IMG/VR virus record: IMGVR_UViG_3300010167_000010
Location: 160,001-224,000 of that record
Direction: 5' to 3' (one strand)
Source of the DNA: a virus
Taxonomy: Duplodnaviria; Caudoviricetes
DNA: 64,000 bases
This document shows, in pieces, positions 16,977 to 38,700 of the stretch. Position 1 is the first letter of the stretch. Each line of letters starts with the position of its first letter. The translations under genes and the position numbers were made by a program. Below the pieces are notes generated by a model. That model made no database searches. It was not told the origin of the DNA and saw only the letters and a program-made list of their open reading frames with translations.

Positions 16977-17849
16977 ATGAAAGTACAGTCGTTATCTGTA
17001 TGTGTTCCTGGAAATAATTGTATAAATAATTGTCGTTGTTGTGTTTCCAGAATGCATAATAATGATAAACTTTATAAAAATCAACTTGAAGAGAATATTG
17101 CATTTTATGATTTATACTTAAATGATTTTATGAAGAGATTACAATTTTGTAGAGATAATGGTTGTAATACTTTAATGTTAACTGGGACAGTTGAACCGCA
17201 ACAGAATATGTCTTTCTTAAAAGATTTTGGAATAATGATGCGATTAATGAATAATCCTTTCCCAATAATCGAAATGCAAACTACTGGAGTTACAATTGAT
17301 AATCCTAAACTTCGCTTTTTAAGAAATCATGTTGGTGTGAGCACAATATCTTTAAGTTTATTTTCTTTTAATGATAAAGAAAACCAAAATTGTAGAGATA
17401 GTAAATTAGAATTAAATATAAAAGAATTTTGTGATGCTATAAAACTATATGATTTTAATTTACGATTAAGTTTGAATTTAACTAAATATTTTGAAAGATT
17501 TACTCCAGAACAATTAATTATAAGCTGTAAAATTTTAGGTGCTGATCAAATAACTTTTAGAAGACTCTATGATACAAATGATGGAAGTGAACAATCTGAA
17601 TGGACTAAACAAAATAGAGCAACCGAAAATTTTGAAAAAGAACTTTTAAAGTTTTTTGAAAAACAAACTGTCTTAAGAAGATTAGAACATGGACCAATAG
17701 TTCGTTCTATTGATGGAATAAGCACTGTTTTTGATTTAGATTGCATGGCTAAAGAAGATAAACATGATGATAAATGGAAATATTTGATTGTTAGACCTAA
17801 TGGAAAATTATACAGTTCTTGGGATGATCCTGCAAGTTTAATATTTTAG
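16977..17849 (+). CDS. radical SAM protein
   Basis: CINNCRCC (CxxxCxxC), LTGTVEP, C-terminal RPNGKLY. Confidence 0.85.
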   Translation: MKVQSLSVCVPGNNCINNCRCCVSRMHNNDKLYKNQLEENIAFYDLYLNDFMKRLQFCRDNGCNTLMLTGTVEPQQNMSFLKDFGIMMRLMNNPFPIIEMQTTGVTIDNPKLRFLRNHVGVSTISLSLFSFNDKENQNCRDSKLELNIKEFCDAIKLYDFNLRLSLNLTKYFERFTPEQLIISCKILGADQITFRRLYDTNDGSEQSEWTKQNRATENFEKELLKFFEKQTVLRRLEHGPIVRSIDGISTVFDLDCMAKEDKHDDKWKYLIVRPNGKLYSSWDDPASLIF

Positions 17850-17864
17850 GTTAATTTATATTAT

Positions 17865-18058
17865 GGTTACGTAGTTTAAGGAAAATACTTATAATACCTT
17901 CGAGTGGGATAAGATTTAAGCCTGAAGTAGATAATACAAGAAGTAAGGTTCGCAAGTTAAATTTTTAGTATGATATGGTTTGGCGGCGCCGTTAATAAGC
18001 CACTCTGTAGAAATACGATCTTTTATAGGAGATGCTGGCTCGAGGCCAACCGTAATCA
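17865..18058 (+). ncRNA. tRNA-like RNA with 132 nt replacing the anticodon loop
   Basis: Acceptor GGTTACG/CGTAATC+A, U8A9, D-stem GTTT/AAAT with GG in loop, anticodon stem CTTAT/ATAGG, variable AGAT, T-arm GCTGG-CTCGAGG-CCAAC (one mismatch); no encoded CCA. Confidence 0.7.
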
Positions 18059-18060
18059 AA

Positions 18061-18330
18061 ATGAAAACAGTAGAAGAAATTTATTCTTATTTAGTTAACA
18101 TCAAAAATGAAGCATCAAAAATGAATGAAGATTCTTTCGATAAAACTAAAGCATTTAAATTTGTTTATAATCATATTCTAGATTTAATTGATGAACTAAA
18201 CTTTATTGATGAAGAAAATGAATTATTTGATGATGATAATTTTGATAGAAAACCAATAATAACTCAAAAGAAAAAAGAAGATAATGATTTATCTACTACT
18301 GGTAAAATAGATTTAGATGATCTTATTTAG
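18061..18330 (+). CDS. hypothetical protein
   Basis: ATG 18061 (MKTVEEIYSY) just after the tRNA-like RNA; the longer TTG start would run through the RNA. Confidence 0.65.
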   Translation: MKTVEEIYSYLVNIKNEASKMNEDSFDKTKAFKFVYNHILDLIDELNFIDEENELFDDDNFDRKPIITQKKKEDNDLSTTGKIDLDDLI

Positions 18331-19352
18331 GACAAATAGCTCTATTTTGAAAACCAAATTTAAAAGCTTTTTCAGCTGATGATATATGTCCCTTTACATA
18401 TTTTTCTGCTGTTTCATACGGAAAATTTTTAATCCAATTTAAAGATTTTTTATAAGTATCTTTTTCTCTTTCAATTCCAATAAAATTACGATTACTAATA
18501 ATAGAAGAAATACCACTTGCACCACTACCCATAAATGGATCTAATACAGTTTCCCCTTCATTCGAAGATATCATCATTAACATTGATAATAATAAAATTG
18601 GCTTTTGGCATGAGTGAATAGCAGAATCGAATTTATTATTATATGATGGGTTTACAAAAAATGTTACATCAGAAGGATAACCATCAAATTTGAGTGGAAG
18701 TCCAGATGCAATGTCACATACCGTTCCCTTCTTTTGGGCTGTTTCTTCAAATTGGCATTCACTAGAAAATGCCATGATATTACCTAATGAAGTAAATCGT
18801 AATGGTGTTTTCCCATCTTCTCCATAGTCCCACCCTCGTTTTATTCCGCCTTTCATTTTATATGGTGCAATAACTTTTCGAAGATATTCTACAGAATTCC
18901 AAATATAATTTTTAGAATCTTTAGTAAGATGAAATATATCTTCTCGTAATGACTTTAATTTTTTAGTAGTTCCTCTTCCAGATTCTCTAGCATAAATAGC
19001 CCAATTTTCTAAATGATTAGTAAAACCTGTCATTTTAATTGCAGAAAACATTTCGTGTATTCTTGTTGGTCCAAAAAATACCCAACAAGTTCCGGTTGGT
19101 GTTAAAACTCTATAGATTTCATGTAACCATTTCGCAGTAAAGTGAATAAAATCTTCCGATGTTTTAAAAGTGTCCCAATCTGTTTCATTCTTATTGTGAT
19201 ACTTATTATTGAATTTAATTCCGTATGGAACTCACCTAAGGAGGGTCGGCTATAACACAGCCGACCGAATTATCTGGAAACTGTTTAAGAAAATGAAAAC
19301 AATCTCCATTATATAATTTTATATTAGAAGTATATAGATTTAATTCATTCAT
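18323..19352 (-). CDS. beta-class N6A/N4C DNA methyltransferase interrupted by a 13-nt gap inside DPPY
   Basis: 5' part 19352-19239 MNELN...LYNGDCFHFLKQFPDNSVGCVIADPP-TAG; 3' part from 19228 PYGIKF...EIYRVLTPTG...HSCQKP...VLDPFMGSG...FIGIE in another frame. Confidence 0.85.
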
Positions 19353-27421: not shown

Positions 27422-28491
27422 CAAAGTTAGAAAAAGCTAGAAAAGAATATGAAAACAAGCAAGCAATTCCAGACGGTTATATTGAAGTAGAATTATCAAC
27501 TCGAGGTTTTATTGGTGCACCCGAAAGGTTCTATATTAGAAACTTTAGTCCAGAAGATTTAATGAACTTAGGATTAGCTGATAGAGAAGATATTCCATTA
27601 AAATTAATTAAAGTTTTAGATAGTTTAATTTTTAATCCAAATCATGATCCAGTTTTATCTATTAAAAACTTTCATGAAAAAGAAGTTATAGAATTATTAT
27701 TATTACTTTATGAAACATTTTATACAACTGTATTCCCTAATCAAGAATGGATTCCAACAGAAGAAGATTGGGAATTCTTAAAGGAACAATGTGGTGGACA
27801 AGAGAGTGAAGAATTTAGAGCAAAAGAAAGAGCTCTTAAAAATAAAACTTGGAAGCCAGTATTTGATATTGATATTTCTAAATTAGAATTTCATGAAATA
27901 CCAAACGACGGAATAAAAACTAAAGCTAAAGTTGATAGAAAATATGGTGATAAACATTTTAGTGCTGTATTTACTTTACCAAAATTTGGTGATTTTATTA
28001 CTTTAAAACATTTTATTGATAGTATTTATAGAGAAGAAGACAAACGATATGCTCGTATTGCTGAAACTATTAAATTTAGAAAAGAAATGGAAGAAAAATT
28101 ACAACGTGGTGAAAATATAAATATGGCTTCAATTCCAAATGTCCCAAAAGCTGAATACGATAAGTATAAAGAATATGAAGTAGATAAATCATTATTTTCT
28201 ATTACAGCTTCAAAAGCATTATATTTAGCAGAAATTGATGGTCAAGATGTTTCTAAATGGAAATTAGAAGATAAACTTGAAATGGCCAAAGATGCTAGAT
28301 TAGATTATAGTGTATTCAAAATGGTTCAAGATCATTTTGATAAGTTAGAGTTCGGGCTAAAGGAGGAAATAACTGTTCGCGACCCCATAATAGATAAAGT
28401 CGTGCAACGGAAATATACGTTTCAACTCATTGATCTACTTACCGCCATTAGAGATACAGGAACTTCTCAAACTACTATATCTTTTGTCTAG
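27376..28491 (+). CDS. tail assembly chaperone / baseplate-hub-assembly-like protein
   Basis: AAGGAG SD; VELSTRG...FYIRNFSPED, FTLPKFGD pattern; followed by short overlapping +1-frame ORF. Confidence 0.5.
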   Translation: MENTREEIGPTNPNLTKLEKARKEYENKQAIPDGYIEVELSTRGFIGAPERFYIRNFSPEDLMNLGLADREDIPLKLIKVLDSLIFNPNHDPVLSIKNFHEKEVIELLLLLYETFYTTVFPNQEWIPTEEDWEFLKEQCGGQESEEFRAKERALKNKTWKPVFDIDISKLEFHEIPNDGIKTKAKVDRKYGDKHFSAVFTLPKFGDFITLKHFIDSIYREEDKRYARIAETIKFRKEMEEKLQRGENINMASIPNVPKAEYDKYKEYEVDKSLFSITASKALYLAEIDGQDVSKWKLEDKLEMAKDARLDYSVFKMVQDHFDKLEFGLKEEITVRDPIIDKVVQRKYTFQLIDLLTAIRDTGTSQTTISFV

Positions 28492-35356: not shown

Positions 35357-35380
35357 ATAATATTTAGTTAATCTAAATAT

Positions 35381-35708: not shown

Positions 35709-38700
35709 ATGGAACTATTTACTCCTAATTCAAAATACTATCAAAAGGTATTAGATTCTTATACTTCTTCAGATGAATTTATAGCTAACAAAAGAGTTCA
35801 TTTTAATAACGAAATTCCTCCTATAGATTTATATGATATGGTTCACTCTATGATGAGAAATGACCTTTGGAAGTGGTTTTTAGGCTCTTCGTATCTATCT
35901 TATGATATAAATTATAATGAAGCTACAAATGGTTCTGAAATTTTTGATAAAGAGGGAATGATTATGGAAGCCTCTATATCAAAACTTATGAATGGTATCA
36001 GATCTCAAGATTACGGACCAATACCTTATTACAGCCACACTAAAAATGGAACATCTCTTATAAATCCAGAATATCATAGATTAGAAATTAATGGTGTATT
36101 TTTACCTGAAGTAGATTTTATGCTTCATGAAGGATATAGATATCTTAATGTGTTATATCCAGATCATCCAGATTTTATAAATATTTTAACTACAAATGAA
36201 ATAAATGATGAAATAACTCAGGCAGCTGCATTAGTTCATTATAATCCAAATTGTATATTTTTTGATTGGCTAGCTACGGAATTAAATTTTGAATTAGATG
36301 ATTTAGATTTACCTCGTGCTGGTAGAGAAGAAGCAACTAAACTTAAAATTCGTAACTTAAAAAACAATGCTTTTAGAAGAAAACTTTATGGGGCAAAATC
36401 TGGTTATTGGCAATTTGGTAGTGAGATATTCCAACATATAACTATACATCCAGTAGCAGAATATCTTCCATTTAAACCTGTTATAAGAGAAATGTTTGCT
36501 AGATCTTTTCATGTACCTTCTAGACATATAAAATGGTTTAGTAAAATCTATAAAAAACCAGATGAATTTGTTGATAGATCTATAAATAAATTTAATTTAC
36601 TTTATAAAAAATTATTTAGACTTATAGATTGGAATAATGTTAGTTATGATTATTTAAACGAATATGTTCCACCGGAAAAAATATGGGGAACTGCATATCC
36701 AACACCTTATTCATTATATGATGTATACGAATATCCAGCTGAACGAAATGCTTATATGTCGCTATCTATTCAGAATGATTTTTATGTTGGTCAAAAAATT
36801 ACTATAAATGGAAACCCAGCCTTTATAAATGGAATGTGGTCTGAAGATTCTTATCGAGTTAAAGTTAGATTAGTTTATGAAAATGATGAACTTGTAGATC
36901 AACGTTCTTCTTGTATTCAACAAACTTTACATGAATCATTAACTAAAATTCATCTAGATAGTCCAGCATACCCAATTTATATTCCTTTTCAAGTTTATAG
37001 GGGAACTGAGTATACTTTAAATAAAATTTTAGAAATTAAAAATGAAATTAGACAAGAAAATAAAGTTATAAAAGAAAAAAATAAAGAGATAGATAATGAA
37101 GAAGAGCATTATCCATTATTAGAACGATTAGATTTAACTGATTATGAAAATGCTTTATTATCTACAAGTAACCCTTTAACTAGATCTATAAAAGAATTAT
37201 ATAAACTTCTTCCAGACCATACTATTTGTAATTTTGCTCTTAACCCATATCAAGATGGAAACTTATATTTACCTGCATCTCAATTTTTAACTTTATATCC
37301 AGAATGGTTAAATATAACTACAAATAGAGATGATATTCATAATCCATATTTAGTTTATGGTGCAACCCCAATGTCAGAAGATGGTTTTGTAAAGAAAGAA
37401 GATTTAATTATAAATGATTTAATTTATAATACTTATGTTTCTGAAATAGTTGGAATAGAACCTGGTCTTATAAAAATGAGAGTAGAGAAAGCTGAACGTC
37501 TTACTAAAACACAAACTGATATTATTGATGAGATAAATAATTTAGAAAATGCTAAATTTGGTATTATAATTCAATTTGATATTGGGAATGATTTAGTTAG
37601 AAATAAAAAAGTAGTTTTATTTGGAAAACCAAAATTTGATTATATTGCATTAGAAGGAAGAGATGATGGTTTATTTCAAATTACTTATATAACTTTTAAT
37701 ATTGTTGCTATCCCAAAAATTAAATCTCATAATTTATTAAAAGCACTTTATAGAGATTATGAAAACCAAGCTTTACATAAATTTAAAAACTTAGAAATAC
37801 TTTTTGGTGAAGAAGATGGTGAAGCAAGTGAAATATTTAAGAAAAATCATCGAAAATATAAAAACATAACTGATAATTTTGAAAATCTTAATTTTATAAG
37901 AGAAGATTATCAAACAAAGTTTAAAAATTTTAATGATAACATTTTAAGATTAAACAATAGATTTAAAAGCGAAATTTTTAGAAATGTAGAAGTAAGTGAT
38001 GGGCCGATTAGATCATTACAAACTAATTTACGTTCTTTATTAAGTAGTTTTATAAATGTTAGTAATGAATATATTACATCTAATATTGGTAATTTAGAAA
38101 ATGTTAGCTATTTTTGTGAAAGAATAAGAGTCTTAATTCAAAACTTTACATTTAATGACGCTATAACAAATGATATGGCTTTATTATATGAAGATTTAGC
38201 AAAATTAGACATAGAAATAAAAAATTTAGAAAAAGAAAATGAAACTTTAGGTGATTTAAATCAGATTATAGCTAATGCTTATGAAAATAGAAAAATAATT
38301 GAACAAATTATAGAAAAAAGAGAAATTATAATCTTATTTTTACAAGAAAAAATAAAATTAGATAACAATTTTGTATCATTTATTTCTGTTATAGATAGTT
38401 TAAATTATAATGACAATATATTTAATTTTATAGAAGAATGTAAAAAACAAGTTACTATTATAGAAACTTTTATAAATGAGTTCGAATCTAATTTCTTATT
38501 TGAACAACCACAACTTTTTAATTATTATAATGGTTTAATAACTCTTTTAAAAGACAAAATATCTTCATATGATAATCATATTATATATCTTAATGAAACT
38601 TTTAGTAATATAAAAGATTTAATTACCATAATTATAGATAATTATTATCTATCGGAAAATAAACAAAATCTCTTAAAACTTTATTTAGAAAAATTTGTTA

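Follow-up and report, generated by a model that had tools for sequence, protein, structure and literature searches.

A conserved tRNA-shaped element with a two-hairpin insert in place of the anticodon loop in a termite-gut jumbo phage

The element and its conservation in a related phage

We analysed a stretch of 64,000 nucleotides (nt) of viral DNA, hereafter called the window, which corresponds to bases 160001-224000 of the 329,018-bp genome of an uncultured jumbo phage (Caudoviricetes; IMG/VR record IMGVR_UViG_3300010167_000010). This genome has direct terminal repeats and a G+C content of 28%, and contigs identical or related to it come from termite-gut samples. The element described here is located at 17864-18059 on the plus strand, in a 211-nt spacer between a radical-SAM gene upstream and an open reading frame (ORF) for 89 amino acids (aa) downstream. 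It comprises 196 nt arranged as a four-way junction like that of a transfer RNA (tRNA), in which a 132-nt two-hairpin domain (17893-18024) replaces the anticodon loop. A preliminary description of the region had reported a tRNA-shaped RNA with a 132-nt insert for the anticodon loop, and our comparison confirms it: all four stems pair, and all are kept in a homologous copy from a related phage, L003. Together the two copies yield nine helices (P1, P3 and so forth). Throughout, L-, G- and P-numbers designate the loci, genomes and proteins of our comparison set, and G000 refers to coordinates in the phage's own whole genome. The features of the locus are as follows.

16977-17849, plus strand: upstream radical-SAM gene, 290 aa, complete, Pfam PF04055
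17850-17858, plus strand: GTTAATTTA, a promoter-type motif, recurrent in the genome and kept in L003
17864-17871, plus strand: 5' strand of P1, the acceptor-like closing stem, pairing with 18051-18058; 7 bp are conserved (17864-70 with 18052-58) and the eighth pair is found in the window only
17874-17886, plus strand: D-arm analogue, with a GTTT/AAAT stem (17874-77 with 17883-86) and the 5-nt loop AAGGA
17888-17894, plus strand: 5' strand of P3, the anticodon-stem analogue, 7 bp, pairing with 18023-18029; CTTAT/ATAGG (17888-92/18025-29) and two further pairs
17895-17910, plus strand: junction strand, with a conserved GAGTG followed by GAT; the latter forms P3b (17908-10 with 18018-18020), kept in L003
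17911-17965, plus strand: insert domain A, with P4 of 8 bp (17911-18/17958-65), P4b of 3 bp (17921-23/17946-48), a loop at 17924-45 and a mini-hairpin at 17951-56
17968-18016, plus strand: insert domain B, with P5 (17968-71/18013-16), P5b (17974-78/18005-09) and a tip at 17979-18004
18023-18033, plus strand: 3' strand of P3 and the 4-nt variable loop AGAT (18030-33), identical in L003
18034-18050, plus strand: T-arm analogue, GCTGG / CTCGAGG / CCAAC, with one C.A mismatch; U55, C56, G57, A58, G53 and C61 are present
18051-18059, plus strand: 3' strand of P1 and discriminator A (18059), with no encoded CCA
18061-18330, plus strand: downstream 89-aa ORF, whose ATG lies 2 nt 3' of the tRNA-like structure; homologues in L002, L003 and L089

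The linkers of the junction consist of a 2-nt TA after the acceptor-like stem, equivalent to U8 and A9 of tRNA, a single A before P3, a variable loop of 4-5 nt, and zero or one nucleotide before the 3' strand of the acceptor-like stem. The D stem is the same in L003, with a 6-nt loop. The tRNA positions U8, A14, G18, G19, A21, G53, U55, C56, G57, A58 and C61 are all present in the window, and the 5' end of the element starts with TGG, as in many of the phage's own tRNAs. The lack of an encoded CCA is shared by all 22 phage tRNA genes called by ARAGORN.

In domain A of the insert, the 22-nt loop is purine-rich, conserved and contains two GAAGTA repeats, and the mini-hairpin is a one-pair C(GNRA)G structure, with tetraloops GCAA (window) and GAGA (L003). 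Domain B combines a conserved internal loop, GA/GAA, with a GC-rich palindromic tip that differs in sequence and length in L003. The block GGAGATGCT (18028-18036), around the variable loop and the first bases of the T stem, shows no change between the two copies and is similar to the Shine-Dalgarno consensus of the phage, AAGGAGA. No known motif could be assigned to the GAAGTA-repeat loop, the GNRA hairpin, the GA/GAA loop or this block. We rejected a hammerhead-like reading of AUGA...GAA in domain B, whose core bases are needed for P5 and for which Rfam is silent, and a kink-turn reading of the GA/GAA loop, whose strand pattern does not fit. The G.U pairs of P1, P3, P4 and P5b would be A.C on the opposite strand, which fixes the RNA on the plus strand.

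The L003 spacer is 212 nt long, lies at the same gene junction and aligns with that of the window over its full length. Seven helices were cleanly aligned with MAFFT, and the D and T arms required alignment by hand. The preliminary description had proposed covariation between homologues as a check, and pairing is indeed conserved: all 37 pairs of the seven helices are standard in both copies, and the 12 pairs that changed, six by double and six by one-sided changes, all remain paired. In P1, where all 7 conserved bp persist, one C-G pair is swapped for G-C and two pairs changed on one side only. P3 has two double changes (T-A to C-G and A-T to G-C), P4 three one-sided changes, P4b and P5 one double change each, and P5b one double and one one-sided change; the invariant P3b provides covariation neither for nor against. 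When partners were slid by 1-3 columns as a control, 36-54% of the cells paired, with 0-1 double changes. With the L003 version written out in full, D and T arms included, 48 of 48 pairs are standard. Its T arm has a 7-bp stem and the 6-nt loop TCGAAT, with one double-changed pair in the hand alignment.

Several details of the window copy that had been singled out earlier did not survive this comparison. The GTA-GAAA-TAC hairpin reads GTT-GAAA-TAA in L003, and its bases belong to the covariation-supported P5 and P5b. The GAGTGG/CCACTC pairing corresponds to GAGTGT/GCAGTTC in L003, and base 18005 of its CCACTC strand sits in P5b. Finally, indels in L003 disrupt the short open frame.

The element is 67% identical between the window and L003 (76% in paired and 62% in unpaired columns), versus 59% for the radical-SAM gene, whose third codon positions are 51-55% identical. 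It is thus more conserved than the adjoining coding DNA, indicating that it is under purifying selection. These data bear on the idea that the spacer holds a decaying tRNA pseudogene or an intergenic remnant, which would serve only to carry a promoter and whose RNA would have no function. Such decay would fit with the absence of the element from the closest relative, its single copy without homologues besides the L003 lineage and the fold z-score of 0 in the window, but the degree of conservation relative to coding DNA, the maintenance of pairing in 12 of 12 changed pairs, insert helices included, and the replacement of one GNRA loop by another in the mini-hairpin make a relic very improbable.

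The closest relative (L002/L007), with a radical-SAM protein 83% identical to that of the window, lacks the element and shows a TAATG stop/start overlap at this junction, and the next one (L003/L004/L008; 68% identity) carries the spacer. The more distant L089, a 261-kb viral contig, has neither the radical-SAM gene nor the spacer, and both also appear to be missing from the 328-kb genome that carries P0122. As L002 and L089 lack the element, the downstream gene can do without it. As L003 is an outgroup to the window and L002, the simplest history would be that of an old element lost in L002, the alternative being two separate gains.

Searches for additional copies gave the same restricted distribution. 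A blastn search of phages with the element yielded no match, and a scan of viral contigs with the single radical-SAM sequence revealed no element homologue. An alignment-based radical-SAM scan of metagenome contigs collected 80 loci, with the element in the L003 lineage only. DNA-pattern scans, three on viral contigs and one on genome contigs, returned nothing or chance coding matches, and nhmmer and the covariance model R1 found no further copy in the phage's own genome or in the 261-kb relative G001. The element is therefore single copy in its genome; it is remote from the phage tRNA cluster and flanked by protein genes. The radical-SAM protein has 1414 homologues, the best 120 of which are mostly 285-296 aa long. 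Pfam, NCBIfam and PHROGs searches assign no function to the 89-aa protein.

tRNA-likeness and known RNA families

Standard detectors are silent on the native sequence. ARAGORN called no tRNA or transfer-messenger RNA (tmRNA) gene in the window, and its intron and tmRNA modes at default settings found nothing in 17700-18200. Rfam gave no match in the whole window at gathering score; at E values up to 10 in 17700-18200, the element remained empty, and the only hits were two chance matches to small nucleolar RNAs inside the radical-SAM gene. The ARAGORN and Rfam searches suggested in the preliminary description thus revealed no known family, and these tests and the fold z-score, taken alone, would make the finding look like chance. 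When 17893-18024 was swapped in silico for a generic 7-nt loop, the resulting 71-nt body was recognized as a tRNA by ARAGORN at its default threshold. This body has no special similarity to any single one of the phage's own tRNAs.

One way to account for a tRNA body with an insert is an interrupted tRNA gene, in which the 132 nt, or part of them, would represent an undescribed type of intron whose removal would generate a decoding tRNA. Besides the recognition of the window body after loop replacement, this proposal can call on the two RNA-ligase-family genes of the phage and on the tRNA introns reported for Lak phages (PMC6784885). In addition, tRNAs for Val, Gly, Trp and Tyr are missing from the ARAGORN calls for the phage, although these gaps are tentative since a more sensitive Rfam scan detected further tRNAs that may belong to these isotypes. 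At an 80% threshold, ARAGORN even proposes, within the element, a Val(cac) tRNA having a long variable arm and an intron of 105 nt, but we rejected this call because it relies on another stem and could not be reproduced with L003. A further difficulty is the loop itself. In neither lineage can an excision generate a 7-nt loop with U33: none of eight 7-nt loops built from the insert flanks gives a conserved U33 loop in both, and the flanking AA and TT pair with each other, merely extending the P3 helix. The earlier statement that no canonical anticodon loop can be rebuilt is therefore upheld for both copies. Moreover, the intron mode of ARAGORN is negative at default settings, no group I or group II intron matches at E values up to 10, and, of the enzymes for a protein-spliced (bulge-helix-bulge) intron, the phage genome encodes neither a splicing endonuclease (PF01974) nor RtcB (PF01139). 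Metatranscriptome contigs show no splice joint, though they do not cover the element. As noted previously, the insert is too short for a group I intron: with 132 nt and only two hairpin domains, versus about 200 nt or more for a P3-P9 core, it falls below the required size, and RF00028 gave no match at E values up to 10. On balance, an interrupted tRNA is improbable.

A second possibility is a miniature tmRNA-like rescue RNA, which would be charged, enter stalled ribosomes and template a short tag from its insert. The topology matches, with ends that form an acceptor stem, a T arm on the 3' side and a large insert for the anticodon arm. G2-C71, G3.U70 and A73 are all found in the window; G3.U70 had been reported as missing, but in the conserved register it is formed by 17866 G and 18056 T. 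The residues P-E-V-D can be read in one frame in both lineages. However, L003 has A3-U70, and indels split the frames after PEVD, with a stop codon that follows immediately in L003 and after 12 more codons in the window. The tmRNA mode of ARAGORN and the Rfam tmRNA models are empty, the element has a D stem, unlike tmRNA, and the phage lacks SmpB and already has a separate tmRNA (L204:1953-2334). With neither the tag ORF nor G3.U70 conserved, tmRNA membership, as contemplated earlier, is not borne out, and a rescue function of this kind is scarcely credible.

On the features that define each class, the element qualifies neither as a tRNA or tmRNA nor as a group I intron or YrlA RNA. As judged from its sequence, it matches no described RNA family and cannot decode codons. 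Among the earlier interpretations, that of a noncoding RNA (ncRNA) mimicking tRNA stands, with its conserved tRNA-like body and its conserved folded insert, and those of a member of the tmRNA family and of a tRNA with an intron are unsupported. An RNA without an anticodon loop is also unlikely to act as a decoy for anticodon nucleases.

The genome encodes a number of other structured RNAs and RNA-related proteins. ARAGORN called 22 tRNAs, and Rfam detected further ones. The tmRNA (G000:26752-27133) lies inside the tRNA cluster and was found at Rfam gathering score with 47.3 bits; no SmpB was detected in the phage genome. A match to class A RNase P RNA (L204:5398-5607, G000:30197-30406; 210 nt, 69.5 bits, E = 1.6e-19, gathering score 100) spans the whole 367-position model and adjoins a tRNA gene; it may correspond to a phage-encoded, strongly reduced RNase P RNA. 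Protein genes include those for a CCA-adding enzyme family member (479-aa ORF, G000:57598-57960, L211) and for two RNA-ligase-family (PF09414) ORFs (G000:124726-125187, L213, and G000:226673-227170, L214).

Between tRNA-Ala and tRNA-Asp, we identified a 145-nt, ORF-free and GC-rich segment (G000:39696-39840, L204:14897-15041) preceded 16 nt upstream by GTTAATTTA. Its ends, GGGCAAG/CTGGTCC with G3.U70, and its T arm, CTTGG-TGCAAAC-CCAAG, make it a second candidate for a tRNA-ended RNA with an insert in this phage; it has no Rfam match at E values up to 0.1. Within L204, three tRNAs with anticodons UUU (Lys; G000:28097-28182), GUG (His; 35892-35974) and UGA (Ser; 27658-27743) have 6-bp anticodon stems and long variable arms, with acceptor stems of 8 bp for UUU and UGA and 7 bp for GUG. 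Their shape recalls serine-type tRNAs or allo-tRNAs and raises the question of the amino acid that they carry. Adjoining tRNA-Ser in the same locus, a tRNA-Cys(gca) (G000:27747-27861) has a 35-nt insert in its anticodon loop according to the intron mode of ARAGORN; in Rfam, it also scores as a tRNA, over a length of 113 nt. A rough search of the whole genome for modules composed of a T arm and an acceptor stem was too noisy to be of use, and its match at 224855-225123 looks coding.

Predicted transcript ends and possible functions

The genome contains 80 occurrences of the motif GTTAAT[ACT]TA, most of them on the plus strand. In 26-27 genes, the ATG is found 14-15 nt after its first G, as had been noted previously for leaderless starts, and some of these motifs directly follow terminator hairpins. 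Since it abuts gene ATGs at a fixed spacing, the motif behaves as a promoter for leaderless messenger RNAs (mRNAs). Counted from 17850, the same offset leads to 17864/17865, the first two bases of P1, and in L003 it leads to the second and third bases of P1. A second class of start-abutting motif, ACTAAWTAWT, directly precedes the ATG of 51 genes, and approximately a third of the phage genes have AAGGAGA instead of a start-abutting motif. Start-abutting motifs also occur inside the window, for example at 35367 (G000:195367). Many of the phage genes appear to be transcribed into leaderless mRNAs, by promoters of two classes. A late promoter (ACTAAWTAWT) in the 3' strand of P1 was rejected, with matches at 6 of 10 positions and no invariant ACTAA core in either lineage. 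We also observed a mini-ORF at 17863-17874 (ATG GTT ACG TAG), 13 nt after the motif, with a five-codon counterpart in L003 (L003:2381-2398) 12 nt after it. These mini-ORFs are 1-2 nt closer to the motif than the leaderless genes, so that the predicted start would cut into the ATG; they may be leftovers of a former leaderless gene start.

The locus thus combines a promoter motif and a 196-nt structured RNA between genes that are otherwise translationally coupled, and no terminator was found between the element and the 89-aa gene. This layout appears best explained by a stable ncRNA cut from the head of the mRNA of the 89-aa gene, which is our best reading. More specifically, we tentatively favour, at a little less than even confidence, a non-decoding, tRNA-scaffolded RNA that would be transcribed from its first base, then released and CCA-tailed by tRNA 3'-end enzymes, leaving the next gene with a near-leaderless mRNA. 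Transcription from the GTTAAT-type promoter would start at 17864/17865, at one of the first two bases of the acceptor-like stem, which would make 5' trimming unnecessary. The RNA would fold as a tRNA-like L, with an extended anticodon arm bearing the two hairpins as cargo. A host enzyme of the RNase Z type would cut after the discriminator A18059, and the CCA-adding enzyme of the phage would then add CCA to generate a stable RNA. The same cut would provide the 89-aa gene with an almost leaderless mRNA (A-AUG), a form apparently used by dozens of phage genes. The cargo would act in trans on a protein or RNA partner, possibly through its GAAGUA-repeat loop, its GNRA loop or its GA/GAA internal loop. 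The presence of the same motif ahead of the G000:39696-39840 candidate, at an offset of 16, supports this scheme.

In one termite-gut metatranscriptome, which contains 24% of the sampled words, contigs cover only 18058-18278 and 18387-18566 of the region. The first contig starts at 18058, the 3' edge of the structure, which is a weak hint at an mRNA 5' end there.

Several observations weigh against a processed, trans-acting RNA. No metatranscriptome contig lies on the element, a lack of cover that is uninformative there as over the radical-SAM gene, and the first contig begins 2 nt ahead of the 5' end that an RNase Z cut is predicted to leave. The phage genome has no gene for an RNase Z-type metallo-beta-lactamase, and no partner was found for the cargo. 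The L003 body is not called as a tRNA even at lowered ARAGORN thresholds, because of its non-canonical T arm (7 bp, 6-nt loop). As only two lineages, those of the window and L003, carry the element, the covariation comes from a single pair of sequences, which also served to derive the structure. In both sequences, the conserved fold lies approximately 10 kcal/mol above the predicted minimum-energy fold, and the RNAfold z-score for the overall fold in the window is 0. Lastly, the unchanged GGAGAU might instead serve as a Shine-Dalgarno sequence, and a cis-acting leader would then be favoured.

Such a leader, of the riboswitch or protein-binding type, would remain part of the 89-aa mRNA and govern its translation, with P1 and P3 alternately hiding and exposing the start region and GGAGAU. 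The ORF has no Shine-Dalgarno sequence ahead of its ATG at 18061. With the T hairpin looped out, GGAGAU would come to lie about 12 nt from the ATG and form a split ribosome-binding site, an arrangement known from genes 25 and 38 of T4. The absence of a terminator before the ATG, the end of P1 2 nt ahead of it and the resemblance of the invariant GGAGATGCT to the phage Shine-Dalgarno consensus are all consistent with a leader, as are two conserved alternative pairings, of TACTY with GAGTG and of ATCTTT with GGAGAT, and predicted minimum-energy folds unlike the conserved one. However, relatives devoid of the element express the 89-aa gene by stop/start overlap, the alternative pairings show no double changes versus two for the competing P3, and the tRNA-like tertiary positions would have no obvious role in a leader; that the RNA contig stops short of the element also argues, weakly, against it. 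We regard the leader as unlikely, although it is the most probable of the alternatives.

Should the favoured scheme extend to other phages, jumbo phages would possess natural tRNA scaffolds, transcribed from the first base of the tRNA body and matured and CCA-tailed by tRNA enzymes, whose 3' excision would make a leaderless mRNA, as a viral parallel to mitochondrial tRNA punctuation, and whose trans-acting cargo, for instance by titrating a host or phage factor, would define a new class of RNA. This broader proposal is speculative, and we would bet against it as things stand. Should the element be transcribed and matured according to the favoured scheme, it would show that phages graft functional RNA domains on tRNA bodies, borrowing the tRNA maturation and stability of the cell, a device that biotechnologists invented as the 'tRNA scaffold'. 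It would also offer a compact and well-defined RNA of 196 nt and nine helices, with covariation support, that is encoded by an uncultured phage of the termite gut and open to synthesis and testing in vitro. As a mere cis leader or relic, its interest would be local. The same genome contains, besides, a tmRNA, an RNase P RNA-like gene of 210 nt and unusual tRNAs, which makes it a rich system for phage RNA biology.

Comparison with known systems

In mitochondria, tRNAs punctuate transcripts, and their excision creates the 5' ends of mRNAs. Similarly, the tRNA-shaped element lies directly against a start codon, in a phage with many apparently leaderless mRNAs, but it represents a single site with a predicted cleavage, versus a genome-wide scheme. 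If the proposed processing is true, it would provide a second natural case, besides organelles, of tRNA-shaped punctuation yielding leaderless mRNAs.

The YrlA-type bacterial Y RNAs, some of which are phage-encoded, contain a tRNA-like module, and both ends of the RNA are located in a Ro-binding stem. They and the element are alike in mimicking a tRNA body in a putative or established ncRNA. Unlike them, the element has ends that form an acceptor stem and no match to YrlA or Y RNA in Rfam, and no TROVE/Ro60 protein was found in the phage genome.

The RNAC and RNAD species of T4 have tRNA-like ends and are matured together with tRNAs. They are small stable phage RNAs of unknown function (PMC9697503). 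They can be likened to the element as ncRNAs of tRNA-encoding phages; their genes lie near tRNA genes, whereas the element is far from the tRNA cluster, between protein genes.

The tRNA genes of the Lak megaphages contain introns described as 'enigmatic' (Devoto et al. 2019, PMC6784885). As in our case, this concerns a huge AT-rich gut phage with an unexplained conserved insert in the anticodon region that belongs to no Rfam class. The Lak inserts, however, interrupt tRNAs with an assignable anticodon. The element has no anticodon loop that can be rebuilt and is therefore not an interrupted decoder.

Like tmRNA, the element has ends that form an acceptor stem stacked on a T arm, a long helix leading to a structured domain, no anticodon and, in the window, G3.U70 and A73. 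It differs from tmRNA by its length of approximately 196 nt, the lack of recognizable pseudoknots, a real D stem, the lack of a conserved tag frame and a G3.U70 pair that is not conserved.

A chimaera built on a tRNA scaffold is processed and stabilized like a tRNA. In the engineered tRNA scaffold for recombinant RNA, a cargo RNA is grafted on the anticodon stem (Ponchon and Dardel; PMC3753655). The scaffold is man-made, whereas the element is natural, is preceded by its own phage promoter, which would place +1 at its 5' end, and abuts a gene start, and its processing and stability are predicted. The working principle proposed for the element is the same, namely a cargo carried on a tRNA body. 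By analogy, the element would work most like the tRNA-like domain of tmRNA or the engineered tRNA scaffold.

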